Positions 5,828 to 46,640 of a stretch of DNA of 47,061 nt are shown here, in pieces. The position numbers and the translations under genes were made by a program. The notes under the pieces were generated by a model. It was not told the DNA's origin and made no database searches. It saw nothing but the letters and a program-made list of their open reading frames with translations. The stretch's first letter is position 1, and each line of letters opens with the position of its first letter. This stretch comes from an uncultured Clostridia bacterium (GTDB lineage: Bacteria > Bacillota > Clostridia > TANB77 > CAG-508): contig CALXJV010000002.1 in assembly GCA_944388715.1 (NCBI GenBank), forward strand, positions 1 through 47,061, written 5' to 3'.

Positions 5828-6268
5828 GCAATTTTGAAATTGTGAATGTTAACATTATTATTTACATCCTCAAATTTATTTTATAGAATGTATATATATT
5901 AATATTGAATGAATTTCGAATGTGATTGGAGAATGATTAGAAAATCTTAAATAATTTTTAGAACAAAAGCGACATGATTTATTCACTTTATCATTTTAGC
6001 TAACTAATATGTCGCGTTTTTGTTCGTGTGCCAATTTTACGTAAGTAAAATTGTGTACAACTAATTTTAATATATTAGAAAGTTTTTGTAACTTTCTAAT
6101 ATATTGTAAATGTTCGCGCCGAGCATAGCGAGGGCTAAGTGAAAGGGTGCCATAAAATTATTTTAGATTTTCTTATCTTTCGTATTGAGCCGAGAAATTC
6201 ATGAAATATTAATATATATACATTGTTATAAAGCATTTAAATTATAAATTGCACATATTAACCCTTAT
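5828..6268. repeat. Long imperfect foldback element E1 (core arms 5881-5960 / 6153-6231)
   Basis: Arms of about 80 nt pair at roughly three quarters of positions when aligned by eye. They enclose three internal hairpins: 5961-6025; 6032-6053; and 6069-6105 with a perfect 16-bp stem. A GC-rich block lies at 6113-6151. The element fills the whole intergenic region. Confidence 0.7.
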
Positions 6269-12652: not shown

Positions 12653-13138
12653 CTAATTTAATCCATTGTTTTTAAGCCATGAAACTGATAGCTTGCTTTT
12701 TATTTCTTCTCTAGCCATTTCGTTTGTAATTTCATAATTTGATGGTGCTACTAAGAATATAGAATTAGATACTTTTTGAATATATCCATCTAAGGCATAT
12801 ACTCCTCCACTTATAAAATCTACAATTCTTCTTGCTACATCTTTATTTACATATTCTAAATTTACAATAACTGATTTTCTTTCTTTTAGGAAACTACAAA
12901 TTTCATCTGATTGCTCAAATGTTGTTGGTTGAGATATAACCATCTTTATTGCGTTTGGTTGTCCTTGTTGCATATTTACAACTTTATTGTTATTGCTATT
13001 TCTTTTTCCAAATATTTTTTTATCTTCTTCCTCTTCTTCATTTTCATAATCATAGATATCTTCATCTTCATATTCTTCTGGTTCAGCTGAGTCCATTCCA
13101 AATAGTCCCCAAACTTTATCCATTAATGCTCCTGACAT
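12653..13138 (-). CDS. sepF: Cell-division protein SepF
   Basis: The MDKVWGLFG N-terminus, an acidic linker and a C-terminal VVNLEYVNKDVARRIVDFISGGVYALDGYIQKVSNSIFLVAP block are typical of SepF. Confidence 0.85.
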   Translation of the reverse strand: MSGALMDKVWGLFGMDSAEPEEYEDEDIYDYENEEEEEDKKIFGKRNSNNNKVVNMQQGQPNAIKMVISQPTTFEQSDEICSFLKERKSVIVNLEYVNKDVARRIVDFISGGVYALDGYIQKVSNSIFLVAPSNYEITNEMAREEIKSKLSVSWLKNNGLN

Positions 13139-13232
13139 AAAAAAACCTCCTAATTTACTTCATTTGTATTCATTTGTACTAAGTATCTACTTTTTTTCCT
13201 AATATGTCAATAGTTTTTTAAAATGTAATATT

Positions 13233-13261
13233 ATTTTAATATTTTTGTAACATTTTTGTAA
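13233..13261 (-). promoter_or_regulatory. Putative sigma-A promoter for sepF
   Basis: The minus strand reads TTACAA-17 nt-TAAAAT, about 95 nt upstream of the sepF ATG. Confidence 0.45.
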
Positions 13262-13326
13262 TATTTAGCTCATAATATAAAATCATATATAATATATTTT
13301 TTCTATTTTGTTATGTGACGTGGAAT

Positions 13327-13630
13327 GGATGTACGTCGCCAATTTCATTAAGTTAAATATTGTAAAAAATGCTATAAGGGAAATATATAATATAAAAAAT
13401 GAACGATTTTGCGTATCTAAATTTGAATTAGAAATTCTTAAAGAAAAAAAGGTGTGATATGCACGGTACTCTCGATAAGAGAGGGTCTGAGTGCAAGAAC
13501 ACCTCTTTTTCTTTCAGAATTTCTTTGAAAATTTAGCTTATACAAAATTGTGAATGACTTTATATTATATATTTCCCTTTTAGTCTCATTCTTTACTAAC
13601 CATTAACTTATTGAAATTGGCGACATCGCC
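13327..13630. repeat. Long imperfect foldback element E3
   Basis: Arms of about 120 nt (13334-13455 / 13499-13628) pair around the GC-rich apex GATATGCACGGTACTCTCGATAAGAGAGGGTCTGAGTGCAAGAAC. The arm sequence resembles E1. Confidence 0.75.
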
Positions 13631-14913
13631 TATTCTACTTTACTTAAGTCTGGATTTAATATTATTTCATCATATAGTGCTATCTTTTTATATGATATTA
13701 TTTCTTCATTTGTAAATCCTAGTTCTTTTAATTCTTCTGTATCATATGGTTCTACAATAGAATATTTTTCTCCTTCTTCTTTTACTTTAACTAGAATTTT
13801 ATTCAAATATCCAGCTCTATTTTGCACCACATATGCCAAATCATCTTGTTTTGCAATAGCCTGATTAGGAATTTTCAATCCAGTTTCACTCCACCAAATC
13901 AAATCAAATGAAATTTTCCTATAACTTAATAATTCCTCAACACCTTTTTCTATTTTCAAAACTAGTACTCTATCTCCATTTTCCTCTTGTAGAATGTAAG
14001 TTATCTCTGCTGAAACTTCTGAACCACTTGGCAATCTTACTTTTACATCATCTCCTACTTGTGCACTCTGTGCCTGTTCTGTATTTGTTACTGTTGCAAT
14101 ATAACAATATGTATTATCAACAATTTTTCCACTTTCTTCACTAGTAGACACTACTTTTCCAGTTTTCAAATCCAAACTTTCTAAATATTCTTTTGTCAAA
14201 GTAGAAAGACATTCTTCTGTTGGTTTCAACACATCTTCTAATCCATCAACTTTATATGATACCACTCCACTTTTACTGGAATTTACATATTCAGCTCCGG
14301 AATTTAGTTCATTCTCATAATTTTTTCTTTCTTCAATTAATTGTTTTAAATATGAACCTTGTGGACTTAAATCTCCAGCAATATTAGCTTTTTTGGTAAT
14401 CAATTCATTAATTTCTTTTTTGTATTCTTCTAATCTTGTTGTATCATTAACATTACTTATTTCTAATAATTTTTGTTCAATTTGTGTTTCTATAGATTTC
14501 ATATCACTTGTAAATAAGTCTGTTTCATTAGTCATTGCTTCTTGTATTTTTGTATCTAATTCTGCAATTTTTTCTTTCAATGAATCTTCATTTTTTGTAT
14601 AATATCTAAATACTGCTTCATTAACAGCAACTTTTTCTCCTTCTGTTTTTATTTTTTCCATTCCATTTTTATAATTTTGTCCTTGTATAATCGTCTCATC
14701 TCTTATTACATATCCTACATCTGTTTCTTCTGAATACAATGTTCCTTCTTCTACTGTGAAAATATCTGTCGGTTGCTTGATTAATAAATATATTGTATAA
14801 GCTAGATATATTGCTATTAGTCCTATAACTATATATATAATTATTTTTTTATTTAATTTTTTCTTTTTTCTCTCTTGTTCTTTTTCTAAAAACTCTTTTT
14901 TCTCTTCTTCCAA
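13630..14913 (-). CDS. Single-pass membrane protein with coiled coil and barrel-sandwich-like region (HlyD-like)
   Basis: 427-aa ORF with a TTG start after AAAGGA. It has one N-terminal TM segment (IIIYIVIGLIAIYLAYTIYLLI). The family assignment is tentative. Confidence 0.5.
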   Translation of the reverse strand: MEEEKKEFLEKEQERKKKKLNKKIIIYIVIGLIAIYLAYTIYLLIKQPTDIFTVEEGTLYSEETDVGYVIRDETIIQGQNYKNGMEKIKTEGEKVAVNEAVFRYYTKNEDSLKEKIAELDTKIQEAMTNETDLFTSDMKSIETQIEQKLLEISNVNDTTRLEEYKKEINELITKKANIAGDLSPQGSYLKQLIEERKNYENELNSGAEYVNSSKSGVVSYKVDGLEDVLKPTEECLSTLTKEYLESLDLKTGKVVSTSEESGKIVDNTYCYIATVTNTEQAQSAQVGDDVKVRLPSGSEVSAEITYILQEENGDRVLVLKIEKGVEELLSYRKISFDLIWWSETGLKIPNQAIAKQDDLAYVVQNRAGYLNKILVKVKEEGEKYSIVEPYDTEELKELGFTNEEIISYKKIALYDEIILNPDLSKVE

Positions 14914-15090
14914 TTGTTTATCATTCCTTTCGATTGAATGTTAAAAACGTGTGAAAACACCAAAAATACACGCTTTAATACCTCTAAAGAAATCTATCCA
15001 CTTTTTATATTCATAGTATTACTATTAAAACTAATTTTAAATAAAATTATATTTAATACATTATAAATATTTTTTGTAAAACGTCTGAGA

Positions 15091-15134
15091 TGTGTCCCTT
15101 TTGGACATTTTTTGTCCATTTTAACACGTCCCCA
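15091..15134. repeat. Solo arm of the GGGGACGTG palindromic repeat
   Basis: TGTGTCCCTTTTGGACATTTTTTGTCCATTTTAACACGTCCCC matches the right arm of the 31704-31820 palindrome at about 40 of 43 positions. It overlaps the last codons and stop codon of miaA. Confidence 0.75.
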
Positions 15135-16047
15135 ATGACCTAATGATAATTTCAATGTTTCTTTGTATACCATCTTCTGCATTTAGCCATATTGTTTGTT
15201 TATTTTTCCTAAACCACGTCAATTGTCTTTTTGCATATCTTCTAGTTTCCATTTTTATTTTTTCTATCATTTCTTCTTTTGTATATATTCCATTAAGATA
15301 ATCTACAACTTCTTTATACCCTAATCCTTGCATTGCTGTTGGGAATTTACTGTATTTATTTAAAATTTTTTTTACTTCTTGTATTAATCCTTGTTCAAAC
15401 ATAATATCTACTCTTTTATTTATTCTTTCATATAGCTTTTCTCTATCCCAGTTTAATGCAAATACTTTATAGTCATATTCTACTTCTTTTTTTCTAGATT
15501 CAATTTCTTGTTCTGTTTTTGTTTTTCCTGTTGCATGATAAATTTCTAACACGCGTAATATTCTTTTTTTATCAGTGGGACTTATTTTTTCTATTGCTTT
15601 TGCATCTATTTGTTTTGCTTTTTCATATAATGTTTCTAGTCCTTTTTCTTGAACTTCCTCTTCTAATTTTTTTCTATATTCTTCATCTAATTTTATATCT
15701 TGATATTCAATTTCATAAATCAAACTATCTATATATAGTCCTGTACCGCCTACAACAATTGGATTTTTTCCTTTTTCTATAATTTCTTTTATTGCTTTTT
15801 TGGCATCTTTTTTATAATCTGCCACACTGTATCTTTTTTCTGGTGATACATATCCTATCAAATAATGCTTTATTCCTTGCATTTCCTCTAGTGTAGGCTT
15901 TGCTGCCCCTATATTCATGTCTTCATATATTTGCATTGAATCACATGATACTATTTCTCCATTTATTTTTTTTGCTAGTTCTATTGATAAAGCTGTTTTT
16001 CCTGATGCTGTTGGTCCACATATTACTATTACTTTATTTTTCTGCAT
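15121..16047 (-). CDS. miaA: tRNA dimethylallyltransferase MiaA
   Basis: VIVICGPTASGKTALSIELAK P-loop and full-length MiaA-like sequence. The start was moved to the ATG at 16047, which follows GAGGTG. Confidence 0.9.
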   Translation of the reverse strand: MQKNKVIVICGPTASGKTALSIELAKKINGEIVSCDSMQIYEDMNIGAAKPTLEEMQGIKHYLIGYVSPEKRYSVADYKKDAKKAIKEIIEKGKNPIVVGGTGLYIDSLIYEIEYQDIKLDEEYRKKLEEEVQEKGLETLYEKAKQIDAKAIEKISPTDKKRILRVLEIYHATGKTKTEQEIESRKKEVEYDYKVFALNWDREKLYERINKRVDIMFEQGLIQEVKKILNKYSKFPTAMQGLGYKEVVDYLNGIYTKEEMIEKIKMETRRYAKRQLTWFRKNKQTIWLNAEDGIQRNIEIIIRSLGTC

Positions 16048-16474
16048 CTTGCACCTCATTATATATATTTATTATTCCTTCTTGTGTACTTTTTAGATAT
16101 CCTTTTTCTGCAAATATGCATATTACAAATATTATCAAAATTATTACTATTCTTTTTTTAGCTTGGTCTTTTTCTATTTCTTCTTCAAGTATTTTATCAA
16201 ATAAATTTGCTATAAATGGTAAAAATATCAAAGAATTTAGACCTGTAAAAATGATAAGTAATGTATTTTTTACTGTCTTTTGAATTTCTTCGCTTGGATA
16301 TATAACATTTGTATTAGAAAAATTATATATCAATAATGTTATTAAATATATGACTAGCAAGCCAACTATTATGAAAATAATTTTTCTTGGTTTTTCTATA
16401 TTACCTAGATTATGCCATATCCATATAATGCTGATTATAAATATCAGAACTGCTACAATTGTAATTACTGTCAT
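16034..16474 (-). CDS. Small polytopic membrane protein, unknown function
   Basis: 146-aa ORF with about four hydrophobic segments, sited between mutL and miaA. Confidence 0.55.
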   Translation of the reverse strand: MTVITIVAVLIFIISIIWIWHNLGNIEKPRKIIFIIVGLLVIYLITLLIYNFSNTNVIYPSEEIQKTVKNTLLIIFTGLNSLIFLPFIANLFDKILEEEIEKDQAKKRIVIILIIFVICIFAEKGYLKSTQEGIINIYNEVQDAEK

Positions 16475-22807: not shown

Positions 22808-22833
22808 TTGTATCACCTCCAAGATTTTGGATG

Positions 22834-22895
22834 AAACGTTAGGGACGTGCTAAATCGTACCAAAATGGAACGATTTAGCACGTCCCTAACGTTCC
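22834..22895. repeat. 63-nt palindromic repeat, family A1, copy 1
   Basis: AAACGTTAGGGACGTGCTAAATCGT-ACCAAAATGGA-ACGATTTAGCACGTCCCTAACGTTCC, sited between the ABC ATPase stop codon and the permease RBS. Confidence 0.9.
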
Positions 22896-22897
22896 AT

Positions 22898-31693: not shown

Positions 31694-31703
31694 TAGGTTA
31701 ATA

Positions 31704-31820
31704 GGGACGTGTCAAAATGGACAAAAAATGGTCAAAAGGGACAGGTCAATAAGCTACTAATCTTTAACAACTATTGACCTGTCCCTTTTGACCATTTTTT
31801 GTCCATTTTGACACGTCCCC
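31704..31820. repeat. 117-nt palindrome with perfect 48-bp arms (family A2)
   Basis: 31704-31751 is the exact reverse complement of 31772-31819, with a 20-nt spacer. It lies between the convergent HD-GYP and mazF genes. Confidence 0.95.
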
Positions 31821-31830
31821 AACAACCCAA

Positions 31831-32181
31831 TTATTCTTCCAGCCCAAAGCTTACTCCCAAGGCATTGTTTACTTCATTAATTATTCTTTCGTCATCTATA
31901 TGACCTATTTTTTCTTTTAATCTACTTTTATCTATAGTTCTTATCTGTTCTGCTAAAACTACAGAATTGTTTTTTAATCCACAGCTTTCTGAATCAATCT
32001 CTATATGTGTTGGTAATTTATTTTTTCCTGTCTGTGAAGTTATTGCTGCTGCAATTACTGTTGGACTATATTTATTTCCTAAATCATTTTGTATAATTAG
32101 TACTGGTCTTACTCCTCCCTGTTCAGAACCTACTACTGGGCTTAAGTCTGCATAAAACATATCTCCTCTTTTTATTACCAT
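31831..32181 (-). CDS. mazF: MazF/PemK-family endoribonuclease toxin
   Basis: [32 protein letters not shown]...[10 protein letters not shown]...LPTHIEI...[16 protein letters not shown]. The start was moved to the ATG at 32181, 8 nt after AGGAG. Confidence 0.85.
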
Positions 32182-32255
32182 TTTTTTCACTCCTAATACT
32201 GTTATATTATCAAGTATGTGTTTTATTTTAAATATTAGTCATAGTAAAGTTATAA

Positions 32256-45327: not shown

Positions 45328-45341
45328 GAAAATTCCTTTCT

Positions 45342-45404
45342 GGAACGTTGGGGACGTGCTAAATCGTACCAAAATGGAACGATTTAGCACGTCCCCAACG
45401 TTCC
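45342..45404. repeat. 63-nt palindromic repeat, family A1, copy 2
   Basis: GGAACGTTGGGGACGTGCTAAATCGT-ACCAAAATGGA-ACGATTTAGCACGTCCCCAACGTTCC with perfect 26-bp arms. Confidence 0.9.
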
Positions 45405-46640
45405 ACTATTTTTCATTTCTTCTATTGCTTTTAATACGCCATATTTCCCATATTCATATGTTAATCCGCCTTGCATATATGCTATATATGGTTCTCTTAA
45501 TGGTCCATCACAACTAAGTTCTATTGTTGAACCTTCTGTAAATGTTCCCGCTGCCATTATTACTTCATCCTCATATCCTCCCATAGGACTTGGCTCTGGT
45601 ACAACATTTGAATCTATTGGTGATCCCTTTTGTATTCCTTGACAAAATTTAACTAATTTTTCTGCTGTTCCTAAATTTATTGTTTGTACTATATCTGCTC
45701 TTTCTTCATCATATTTAGGCTCTACATCATATCCTAACTCTTCTAAAATGCTACTAGCAAATATTGCCGTTTTTACACTACTTGCTACAACTTGTGGTGC
45801 AAAAAATAATCCCTTTAATAAATTTGTATTTTGGTTTAATGATGGACCTATTTCTTTTCCTATTCCTGGTGCTGTTAATCTTTCTGCACATAATTTAATT
45901 AGATGTTCTTTTCCCACTATATAGGCACCACTTGTTGCTATTCCTGCTCCTAAATTTTTCATTAAAGAGCCCACTGCTATATCAGCACCTACTTCTATTG
46001 GTTCTCTATCTTGAACAAATTCTCCATAACAATTGTCTACCATTATAATTACTTCTTTGTTTACTTCTCTTATTGCTTTTATTACTTTTTCTATTTTTTC
46101 TATTGTTAAACTTTTTCTTGTTGAATATCCTCTTGATCTTTGAATTTCAACTAATTTAACATCTTTTTTGGCTAATCTTACTTTTATTTTTTCTATGTCA
46201 AAGTCATTATTTACTAATTCTATTTGTTCATATTTTATACCATATGCTTTTAAAGAACTTTCACTTACTTCTTTTCCTATTCCTATTACTGTTTGTAATG
46301 TGTCATATGGTTCTCCTGTTATGCTTACCATCATATCATTTGGACGTAATAATGCAGATAGAGTTATCGCTAAAGCATGTGTTCCTGATATAAATTGTGC
46401 TCTAACTAGACTGTCTTCTGCTTTAAATATTTTTGAATATATTTCTTCTATTTTGTTTCTTCCTACTTCATCTATCCCATATCCAGTTGATGTTGCTAAA
46501 TGCATTTCTTGTAGATTACATTCTTGAAATGCTTTTATTACTTTTATACTATTTTTACTACATATTTCTTCGATTTTTTTGAATTGTGGTTCTATTTTTT
46601 TTTCTATATTTTTTGATAATTCCACTAAATCTTTATTCAT
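45384..46640 (-). CDS. PLP-dependent 'aluminium resistance'/YnbB-like (Met gamma-lyase family) protein
   Basis: STGYGIDEVGRNKIEEIYSKIFKAEDSLVRAQFISGTHAL is typical of the family. The last 6 codons and the stop codon lie inside the repeat. Confidence 0.75.
   Translation of the reverse strand: MNKDLVELSKNIEKKIEPQFKKIEEICSKNSIKVIKAFQECNLQEMHLATSTGYGIDEVGRNKIEEIYSKIFKAEDSLVRAQFISGTHALAITLSALLRPNDMMVSITGEPYDTLQTVIGIGKEVSESSLKAYGIKYEQIELVNNDFDIEKIKVRLAKKDVKLVEIQRSRGYSTRKSLTIEKIEKVIKAIREVNKEVIIMVDNCYGEFVQDREPIEVGADIAVGSLMKNLGAGIATSGAYIVGKEHLIKLCAERLTAPGIGKEIGPSLNQNTNLLKGLFFAPQVVASSVKTAIFASSILEELGYDVEPKYDEERADIVQTINLGTAEKLVKFCQGIQKGSPIDSNVVPEPSPMGGYEDEVIMAAGTFTEGSTIELSCDGPLREPYIAYMQGGLTYEYGKYGVLKAIEEMKNSGTLGTC

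Follow-up and report, generated by a model that had tools for sequence, protein, structure and literature searches.

The spacer between an hlyD-like gene and sepF in an uncultured Clostridia bacterium (contig CALXJV010000002.1; the 47,061-nt stretch analysed here is referred to as the window) is occupied by a long foldback, E3, and the question raised by this locus is whether the foldback belongs to one of the two genes or to something that extends well beyond them. A sequence-only reading had placed E3 just upstream of a predicted sepF promoter and described it as homologous to a second foldback of the window, E1. In our analysis, E3 is neither a dedicated sepF riboregulator nor half of a two-member E1/E3 family. 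It is probably one copy of a non-coding, multi-copy mobile foldback repeat, comparable to MITEs (miniature transposable elements with inverted repeats) and REPINs, of a clade of uncultured low-GC gut Clostridia: at least 21 copies are present in the closest relative, over 100 loci of the clade are occupied, and both filled and empty sites were seen. Members of the family are dispersed, favor the 3' ends of genes, are present or absent at the exact boundaries of the palindrome and persist at the same locus across species; cores have been inverted in place, hairpin tips deleted or refilled, and one arm rewritten as an exact complement. The best-supported description of E3 is that of a non-autonomous foldback mobile element within the ecosystem of REPINs and terminal inverted repeat (TIR) sequences.

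The foldback and its family

E3 is non-coding, 290 nt long (13335-13624) and folded back over its full length, as is typical of MITEs, with ends that differ between the copies of the family. Its parts, together with those of an older hairpin around it, are the following.

13335..13383: left outer arm ("Y" layer), begins with GTCGCCAATTTCATTAAG, pairs with 13572-13624
13384..13571, + strand: conserved core ("X" layer), 188 nt, a hairpin with imperfect pairing and three internal loops that are conserved
13451..13504, + strand: type-A apex module, with a purine-rich internal loop below the apex, described by covariance model R2
13572..13624: right outer arm ("Y" layer), ends with AAATTGGCGAC, complement of 13335-13383
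13320..13328: part of an older small hairpin enclosing E3, its 3' half when read in gene orientation; GTGGAATGG pairs with CTATTCTAC at 13630-13638
13630..13638, - strand: final codons of the HlyD_2-family gene with its stop (13630-13632), which make up the second half of that hairpin

A repeat finder pairs 13335-13455 with 13499-13624, close to the arms originally described (13334-13455 and 13499-13628), through nested segments of 22 nt (95% complementary), 25 nt (96%) and 53 nt (72%); the match between the outer arms is imperfect (51 nt paired with 55 nt) and is interrupted by several mismatches and small gaps. When the 321-nt stretch 13320-13640 is folded as RNA, either strand forms a single hairpin, of -130 kcal/mol (+) and -123 kcal/mol (-), with z-scores of -16.0 and -16.8 relative to dinucleotide shuffles that center around -50 to -54 kcal/mol and of which none (0/100) is as good; folded as DNA, E3 has a z-score of -13.5. 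The apex, 13460-13495, reads TGCAC, GGTA, CTCTC, a GATAA loop, GAGAG, GGTCTGA and GTGCA, and contains the CTCTC/GAGAG mini-hairpin noted earlier (13469-13473/13479-13483), enclosed by TGCAC (13460-13464) paired with GTGCA (13491-13495). The + strand of the core is the one on which G-U pairs stand in for mismatches. The palindrome proper stops at 13624 and leaves 5 nt to the upstream gene's stop codon; the description of the element as ending one base into that codon applies only to the outer 9-bp helix, 13320-13328/13630-13638, which overlaps the stop and also exists in the element-free sister species. Inspected by eye, the apex did not fit the consensus of a K-turn or of a sarcin-ricin motif, and a sarcin-ricin-like GGUACGAGAGGGUC in one family locus (L003) is a deletion product.

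With a 20-mer taken from the core arm, at least 108 stretches were matched; all but one of those listed belong to metagenome-assembled genomes (MAGs) of related uncultured gut Clostridia, and the one outside these lies in a coding region and matches by chance. The closest relative of the window organism is the MAG CAKNJL01, with 95% identity in the HlyD-like protein and 98.8% in SepF; in this sister MAG the apex 19-mer occurs 15 times, and the core-arm 20-mer added further copies, for the total of at least 21. Altogether, 99 unique copies were recovered, and 79 were typed, from 21 GTDB MAGs and the window's own species. The core of E3 is the only copy within the 47-kb window and is 95% identical to the sister-MAG consensus. 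An origin from phages was considered and set aside, the viral contig collection having yielded no exact match; likewise, candidates for an autonomous version, in which a gene would split the core arms, proved to be truncated or tip-deleted copies, and no protein-coding element bounded by core or Y-type arms was found in approximately 1.5 Mb of family loci.

The shared core is about 189 nt long, starting with TATA(G/T)AATATAAA and ending with its complement. Across 62 aligned copies, two mid-arm segments, GATTTTGCGTATCTAAATTTGAA and GAAAATTTAGCTTATACAAAAT, are nearly invariant, and because they surround conserved internal loops, among them the invariant purine-rich GAGGAAUG opposite AGAGGCUC, the two core arms are not mirror images of each other, an asymmetry that has been kept. 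A conserved segment of 20 nt is present in both core arms in inverted orientation. The apical motif, which had been raised as a possible conserved core, turned out to be the most modular part of the element, with the invariant sequence lying in the mid-arm segments instead. Four types of apex were distinguished: type A, which is that of the window; type B, GAGGAATGCTCATTTTGC ... GCAACAATGAGAGAGGCTC; type C, a third form; and type D, in which the tip is replaced by a further hairpin of about 180 nt, a nested insert.

Outside the core, the copies of the window and the sister MAG have outer arms of 40-100 nt that differ strongly between copies and pair almost perfectly within a copy (49/49, 88/88 and 89/89 are examples from the sister MAG). 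In most other species, the core is followed by short unpaired linkers and then by inverted AAAAAGGGATTTTGGGGACGGACTCATTTTTCCCTTTTT units; several linker sequences are reused in different copies, on either side of the core, and some copies have an extra TGTCCAATTGGGGACGTTTCTGTTTGGGACATTTT layer beyond the AAAAAGGGATTTTGGGGACGGACTCATTTTTCCCTTTTT units. Of 73 copies, 45 carry a GGGAC motif on both flanks and 22, among them E3, on neither. The outer repeat pairs (W-W, V-V) also stand alone, with short or unrelated contents, and some family cores have lost their center.

Membership of E3 in a repeat family is thus real, at over 100 loci in at least 21 related MAGs, and by BLAST and covariance-model tests E1 is not a homologue of E3. 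The best BLAST match between E1 and E3 spans 19 nt at an E-value of about 0.1, and the shared apical motif was not recovered either: the covariance models R1 and R2, built from apexes of the E3 type and scoring 82-107 bits on E3, have no match near 6105-6160 even at E ≤ 10. Of the two models, R1 includes the long AT-rich stem, matched every AT-rich palindrome in the window and was uninformative for E1, whereas R2, restricted to the apex, is specific (82.2 bits and E 1e-21 on E3, with the next match in the window at 12 bits). The arms of E1 (5887-6224) instead match the nested insert of the type-D apex, with 88% identity over 74 nt to L183 (5617-5797) and 84% over 37 nt to L101 (3276-3312) and to many other copies. 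Judged by these similarities, E1 is a composite nested palindrome and represents a different layer of the same repeat ecosystem as E3.

Several other repeats of the window were recorded along the way. The center of E1 (approximately 6013-6104) matches a further repeat in L139, L110, L090 and L009. Two near-identical 65-nt palindromes between genes, at 22831-22897 and 45341-45405, have TGGAACGTTGGGGACGTGCTAAATCGTACCA arms and a 3-nt loop and look like GGGGAC repeats of the REPIN type; in the sister MAG, a single arm of the TGGAACGTTGGGGACGTGCTAAATCGTACCA type abuts a copy of the E3 family (L141). A palindrome at 31696-31827, with 56-nt arms (GGGACGTGTCAAAATGGACAAAAAATGGTCAAAAGGGACAGGTC) and a 20-nt spacer, has an HD-domain gene on one side and a MazF/PemK-like toxin gene (31831-32190) on the other, and GGGACGTGTCAAAATGGACAAAAAATGGTCAAAAGGGACAGGTC arms enclose a full E3-type element in four sister-MAG loci. 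A lone, partnerless arm of the same type of repeat, GGGGACGTG..., is found at about 15085-15140, where it overlaps the stop of a miaA-like gene (open reading frame (ORF) 15121-16059, - strand).

The hlyD-sepF locus with and without E3

The genes and signals around E3 are all on the - strand.

13630-14913, - strand: gene for an HlyD_2-family membrane-fusion protein (Pfam HlyD_2, 4e-52)
12653-13138, - strand: SepF gene, followed by DivIVA
13210-13182, - strand: predicted sepF promoter, TTGACA-17-GATACT, outside E3, its sequence kept in element-free species

The spacer between the two genes measures about 128 nt in some 60 related species, 215 nt in the sister MAG (locus L042) and 491 nt in the window. 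No core is present in the 215-nt spacer of the sister MAG, and the alignment reveals no trace of one. E3 is present in every metagenome contig of the window's own species that spans the spacer, which is the case for six of the eight contigs retrieved; the other two (L020 and L021) stop at or just inside E3, consistent with breakage of short-read assemblies. The two states of the site compare as follows.

Empty site, L042: GTGGAATAG GGGGGTGAT^GTACAT CTATTCCAC
Filled site, window: GTAGAATAG GCGAT[GTCGCC ... 290 nt ... GGCGAC]GTACAT CCATTCCAC

When the window is aligned to L042, the filled and empty sites differ by exactly the palindrome, and the alignment therefore places E3 in a small hairpin's loop, the left arm of this hairpin being formed by the end of the hlyD-like gene. 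The element-free sister has GTAAAGTGGAATAG, 15 nt, and then CTATTCCACTTTAC. At L042:5160-5205, an inverted repeat of the hlyD-like gene's final 14 nt (GTAAAGTGGAATAG) is found 15 nt downstream, with 14/14 identity; this gene-end repeat resembles a palindrome that has grown outward into the gene, and none was seen in the spacers of more distant species that were read. The idea that the outer arms originated as inverted copies of the local flank was also considered; at the hlyD-sepF locus it is true for the outermost 9-14 bp only, and it fails for another copy (L008) when compared with its empty orthologous sites.

The location of E3, between a stop codon and the sepF promoter, is what would be expected of a hairpin specific to this locus, one that would terminate the hlyD-like gene or regulate sepF as a leader structure. 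However, a scan of 13050-13750 found no terminator-like site (a short GC-rich stem with a U-tract) on either strand, the core recurs at more than 100 unrelated loci, and the roughly 60 related species, the closest one included, have the gene pair and the promoter without the element. A locus-specific hairpin is effectively excluded on these grounds. E3 does lie upstream of the predicted sepF promoter, as had been stated, at a distance of about 125 nt and with the promoter intact; the specific tie to sepF that this position seemed to imply is not supported, because the same species keep the promoter region without E3. Just upstream of this promoter, at 13224-13274, three ATATTACAAAA-like boxes are spaced 11 nt apart, and such boxes are present in nine related species whose spacers were read, seven of which are more distant. 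Because they are kept across these nine species, the boxes are likely to be a real regulatory site for sepF.

For the host, the predicted consequence of E3 is the addition of a very stable 290-nt hairpin 5 nt past the hlyD-like stop, leaving the conserved sepF promoter untouched. Since there is no terminator-like site between that stop and the promoter, read-through transcripts would contain a long double-stranded segment, with near-perfect duplexes of 22-25 bp. Such a duplex might plausibly serve as a target of RNase III or as a barrier to exonucleases, which would be a side effect rather than designed control of sepF.

Placement, rearrangement and pairing of the family copies

The position of E3 is typical of the family. 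In the 60 copies that have an ORF on each side, the flanking genes are tandem in 34 cases, convergent in 25 and divergent in one. The core starts at a median distance of 67 nt past the upstream stop codon, so that the outer arms begin at the stop codon itself, and 10 of 16 copies in the sister MAG overlap a stop codon or sit 0-21 nt from one. A location outside genes with a preference for 3' ends is a feature of REPINs and TIR repeats that E3, 5 nt past a stop codon, shares. Many copies are at orthologous positions in different species. In a side case (L005:6490-6872), two convergent ORFs run into the arms of the palindrome and both end in GAA A/GTG GAA CAT TAG; the repeat thus supplies the C-terminal residues and the stop codon of both genes.

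This strict placement at gene ends, with a single divergent case in 60, and the long vertical retention at orthologous sites could reflect a role for the host at the level of DNA, in which a cruciform or a protein-binding site would organize supercoiling or insulate transcription units. The 20-nt segment inverted between the core arms could be read as a pair of protein-binding sites, and there are precedents among repetitive extragenic palindromic (REP) sequences and bacterial interspersed mosaic elements (BIMEs), those of Escherichia coli binding gyrase or IHF (PMC6006769). Against such a role, close species differ freely by gain, loss and deletion of copies and none of the loci seems to require one, the asymmetry conserved between the arms would be unexpected in a symmetric double-stranded binding site, and no candidate binding protein was identified. 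We regard it as distinctly improbable.

Rearrangements at the level of DNA count in favor of a mobile repeat. At one orthologous locus shared by five species, with the element directly after the same stop, the core is in forward orientation in three (L101, L137, L183) and inverted in two (L165, L184); L101 and L184 have opposite core orientations and a left linker in common, which shows that the core, framed by its own terminal inverted repeats, flips in place. In L133, it is the apex that is inverted relative to the arms. Apexes of types B and D were found at one locus in different species, and the site at which L114 has a full element is occupied in L159 by a single repeat unit. In L152 (3412-3601), compared with L155 (4859-5048), the right half of the apex and stem is the exact reverse complement of the left half, a rewriting in which the conserved asymmetric loop has been lost and which directly attests arm-to-arm conversion or template switching.

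The core might also be a functional structured RNA of about 190 nt, either a cis-acting element in the 3' untranslated region (3'-UTR) of the upstream gene or a small RNA transcribed independently, carried by palindromic repeats or embedded in them. In the alignment of type-A apexes, 95.7% of the cells are paired and 15 double-sided pair changes were counted, in comparison with 4.9 ± 1.2 in shuffled alignments (0/500 reach the observed number) and 2-7 in slid controls. The inner apex helix covaries, occurring as CTCTC/GAGAG, CTCGC/GCGAG, CTTTC/GAAAG and CTCAC/GTGAG, and compensatory changes were found in 16 of the 53 pairs of the 62-copy alignment. The invariant internal loops, purine-rich in the case of GAGGAAUG/AGAGGCUC, are in line with an RNA function, as is the persistence at the same locus through several speciations with core arms about 95% identical. 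Within the window's species, the core is less polymorphic than the remainder of the spacer, with 1 variable site in 188 compared with 7 in 196, a small sample. Pairing is maintained and the core is constrained, which does not by itself make the functional molecule an RNA. Covariation is not proof, because template switching between the arms of a DNA palindrome yields "compensatory" changes without selection, and one conversion of this kind was observed, in L152.

A hand tally of pair types over the 62 copies, on the + strand of the window, gave about 112 G-U cells versus 7 A-C, an excess that counts for the RNA reading, although two alignment columns contribute most of it. In tandem contexts, this strand is antisense to the flanking genes in 25 of 34 copies, a 25:9 orientation bias that counts for it as well; yet it follows that a role in 3'-UTRs would, in most copies, use the strand that pairs worse. 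The inversion of the core between orthologous loci is contrary to an orientation-dependent role in cis, no consistent promoter-like motif was seen upstream of the core when the linkers were read by eye, and no terminator was found. Nor is there a match to an Rfam family: at gathering thresholds, Rfam 15 gave zero matches for the window, and at permissive E-values the window and a related locus hit only weak, generic microRNA-precursor hairpins, which were taken as noise. That the core is a functional RNA is, in our assessment, unlikely. A small peptide encoded by the core was ruled out because 1-nt indels between copies break the reading frames of the arms, which bears out the earlier conclusion that conservation is at the nucleic-acid rather than the peptide level. 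A comparison of core-arm identities (95.2% between orthologues, 95.3% between paralogues within a genome and 92.3% for other pairs) was tried as a means to part vertical descent from homogenization, and the core arms are too conserved to discriminate.

The Y1 transposase and known repeat systems

A candidate enzyme is encoded in related genomes. At L171:237-956, a 239-aa ORF inside two inverted GGGGACGGAGATTTTGACAA units matches Pfam Y1_Tnp (6.6e-12), has a C-terminal helix-turn-helix (HTH) and scores 83 bits, with a cut-off of 80, against the NCBIfam model "REP-associated tyrosine transposase". A Y1 gene flanked by inverted TGTCAATGGGGACGGAGATTTTGACAA is present in six related genomes, the sister MAG included, and the gene of the sister MAG (L196:1501-2217) and those of its relatives have GGGGACGGAG repeats on their flanks. 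The flanking repeats of TIRtrons, or TIRYTs, share a GGGGWSAS motif (Di Nocera et al. 2013, PMC3733652), and the TIRYT arrangement is subclass 2.1 of Quentin et al. 2018 (PMC6006769); by sequence, the clade's Y1 gene with its flanking repeats fits both the TIRtron/TIRYT description and subclass 2.1. The shared motif would link the outer layers of the family to the Y1 enzyme. Because the arms of E3 have no GGGGAC motif, E3 itself is linked to the transposase by family association only, and mobilization of the family by this enzyme, taken as a claim of its own, is possible, with the balance tilted somewhat against it. As to the context of the Y1 genes, gene and flanking repeats adjoin a tRNA gene in three of six loci examined (L193, L196, L197), and in one MAG, CALXHG01, the gene is present twice (L198, L199).

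A scenario for the behavior of the family can be proposed, in which the Y1 transposase would spread the copies by acting on them as folded single-stranded DNA and the single-stranded tips of existing hairpins would be preferred landing sites; a preference for tips would explain the nesting of a hairpin in the tip of another. The complementarity of the arms might be upheld by intrastrand template switching or arm-to-arm conversion, and not only by selection, and the core might be conserved since it is needed in cis. A more specific possibility is that the core is a previously undescribed structured single-stranded DNA or RNA module, the functional unit of a Clostridial Y1 (TIRYT) system, or else a new multi-copy non-coding RNA spread by the repeats. 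Such a module would ride between GGGGAC repeats, flip in place, and both occupy hairpin tips and offer them as landing sites. We consider this somewhat unlikely; if true, the genomes of the clade would record hairpin-loop-targeted single-strand transposition in layers.

Several observations weigh against reading E3 as a mobile element. No target-site duplication or target motif was consistently found across the family copies. The flanks of E3, GGCGATGT and GGCGACGT, are identical at 7 of 8 positions, part of this likeness belonging to the palindrome itself: on the gene strand, the right junction GGCGAC|GT approximately repeats the left, GGCGAT|GT. The sister could have lost E3 by slippage between these 7/8-identical GGCGAYGT repeats, rather than the window lineage having gained it; both directions fit the locus, and the extra 87-nt segment of the spacer is shared by no outgroup. 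The window contains no transposase gene (the genome of the window species was not searched), and the arms of E3 lack the GGGAC of REP/TIR units that 45 of 73 copies have. Finally, the core arms of orthologues, at about 95% identity, are as conserved as or more conserved than the flanking, mostly coding DNA (82-95%), which hints, as do the conserved asymmetric purine-rich loops, the one-strand G-U bias and the 25:9 orientation bias, at a function that goes further than selfish spreading. With these points taken into account, a mobile foldback repeat is the reading that we prefer.

Hairpin repeats tied to Y1 transposases are a known kind of system. For the particular architecture of the E3 family, which combines a long structured core, variable paired ends, nesting and a Clostridial host, no description was found in Rfam or in the papers searched and read. 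The outcome is that a repeat family of uncultured gut Clostridia is now documented; the literature found on REPINs and RAYTs concerns mostly Proteobacteria, and TIRYT systems have been described only briefly. With nesting, flipping, tip deletion and the "perfecting" of palindromes side by side, the family is a natural data set on the survival and evolution of long palindromes in bacteria, and it is useful for asking what a Y1 transposase recognizes. On the practical side, elements of this family break short-read assemblies and may pass for regulatory RNAs.

Compared with REPINs and the REP/BIME sequences that accompany RAYT (TnpA-REP), the family has in common that hairpin repeats are located outside genes, mostly at 3' ends, in tens of copies per genome (PMC3116915, PMC6006769), that they are retained vertically at orthologous sites, and that a gene for an IS200-like transposase of the Y1 family is flanked by related inverted repeats. 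REPINs, however, are about 100 nt long and consist of two short REPs and a spacer, whereas most copies of the E3 family hold the structured core of about 190 nt between repeat units, with elements nested in the tip, and E3 itself is without a recognizable REP/TIR motif. The hosts differ as well, being Clostridia here and pseudomonads and enterobacteria in the REPIN literature found. The resemblance to TIRtrons/TIRYT (PMC3733652; PMC6006769) includes the Y1 transposase and its C-terminal HTH, inverted repeats on the flanks with a G-rich motif close to GGGGWSAS (here GGGGACAG or GGGGACGG) and dispersal of the same repeats singly, as dimers and in clusters. Here the motif often has G, not A, at position 7, and the TIRtron descriptions available give TIR repeats only, without the long conserved core, layered nesting and variable paired arms seen here.

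Another parallel is offered by IS1397/ISKpn1 and some IS110/IS1111 members, which insert into the loops of REP palindromes. A shared preference for the center of an existing palindrome would explain, by analogy, the nesting in the E3 family. Elements of the IS1397/ISKpn1 type are protein-coding insertion sequences with known transposases, unlike the layers of the E3 family, every one of which is non-coding.

The foldback MITEs of bacteria (ERIC/IRU, Correia/NEMIS, RUP and bcr1) are similarly small, non-coding, hairpin-forming over their full length and located beside genes, with which they are co-transcribed and whose mRNAs they can stabilize or destabilize (PMC3733652). A typical MITE has conserved termini, a freer interior and a defined target-site duplication, in contrast to the variable termini, conserved interior and lack of a consistent duplication among the copies found here. 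The E3 family thus inverts the usual logic of a MITE: it is the inside that is conserved and the paired ends that vary.

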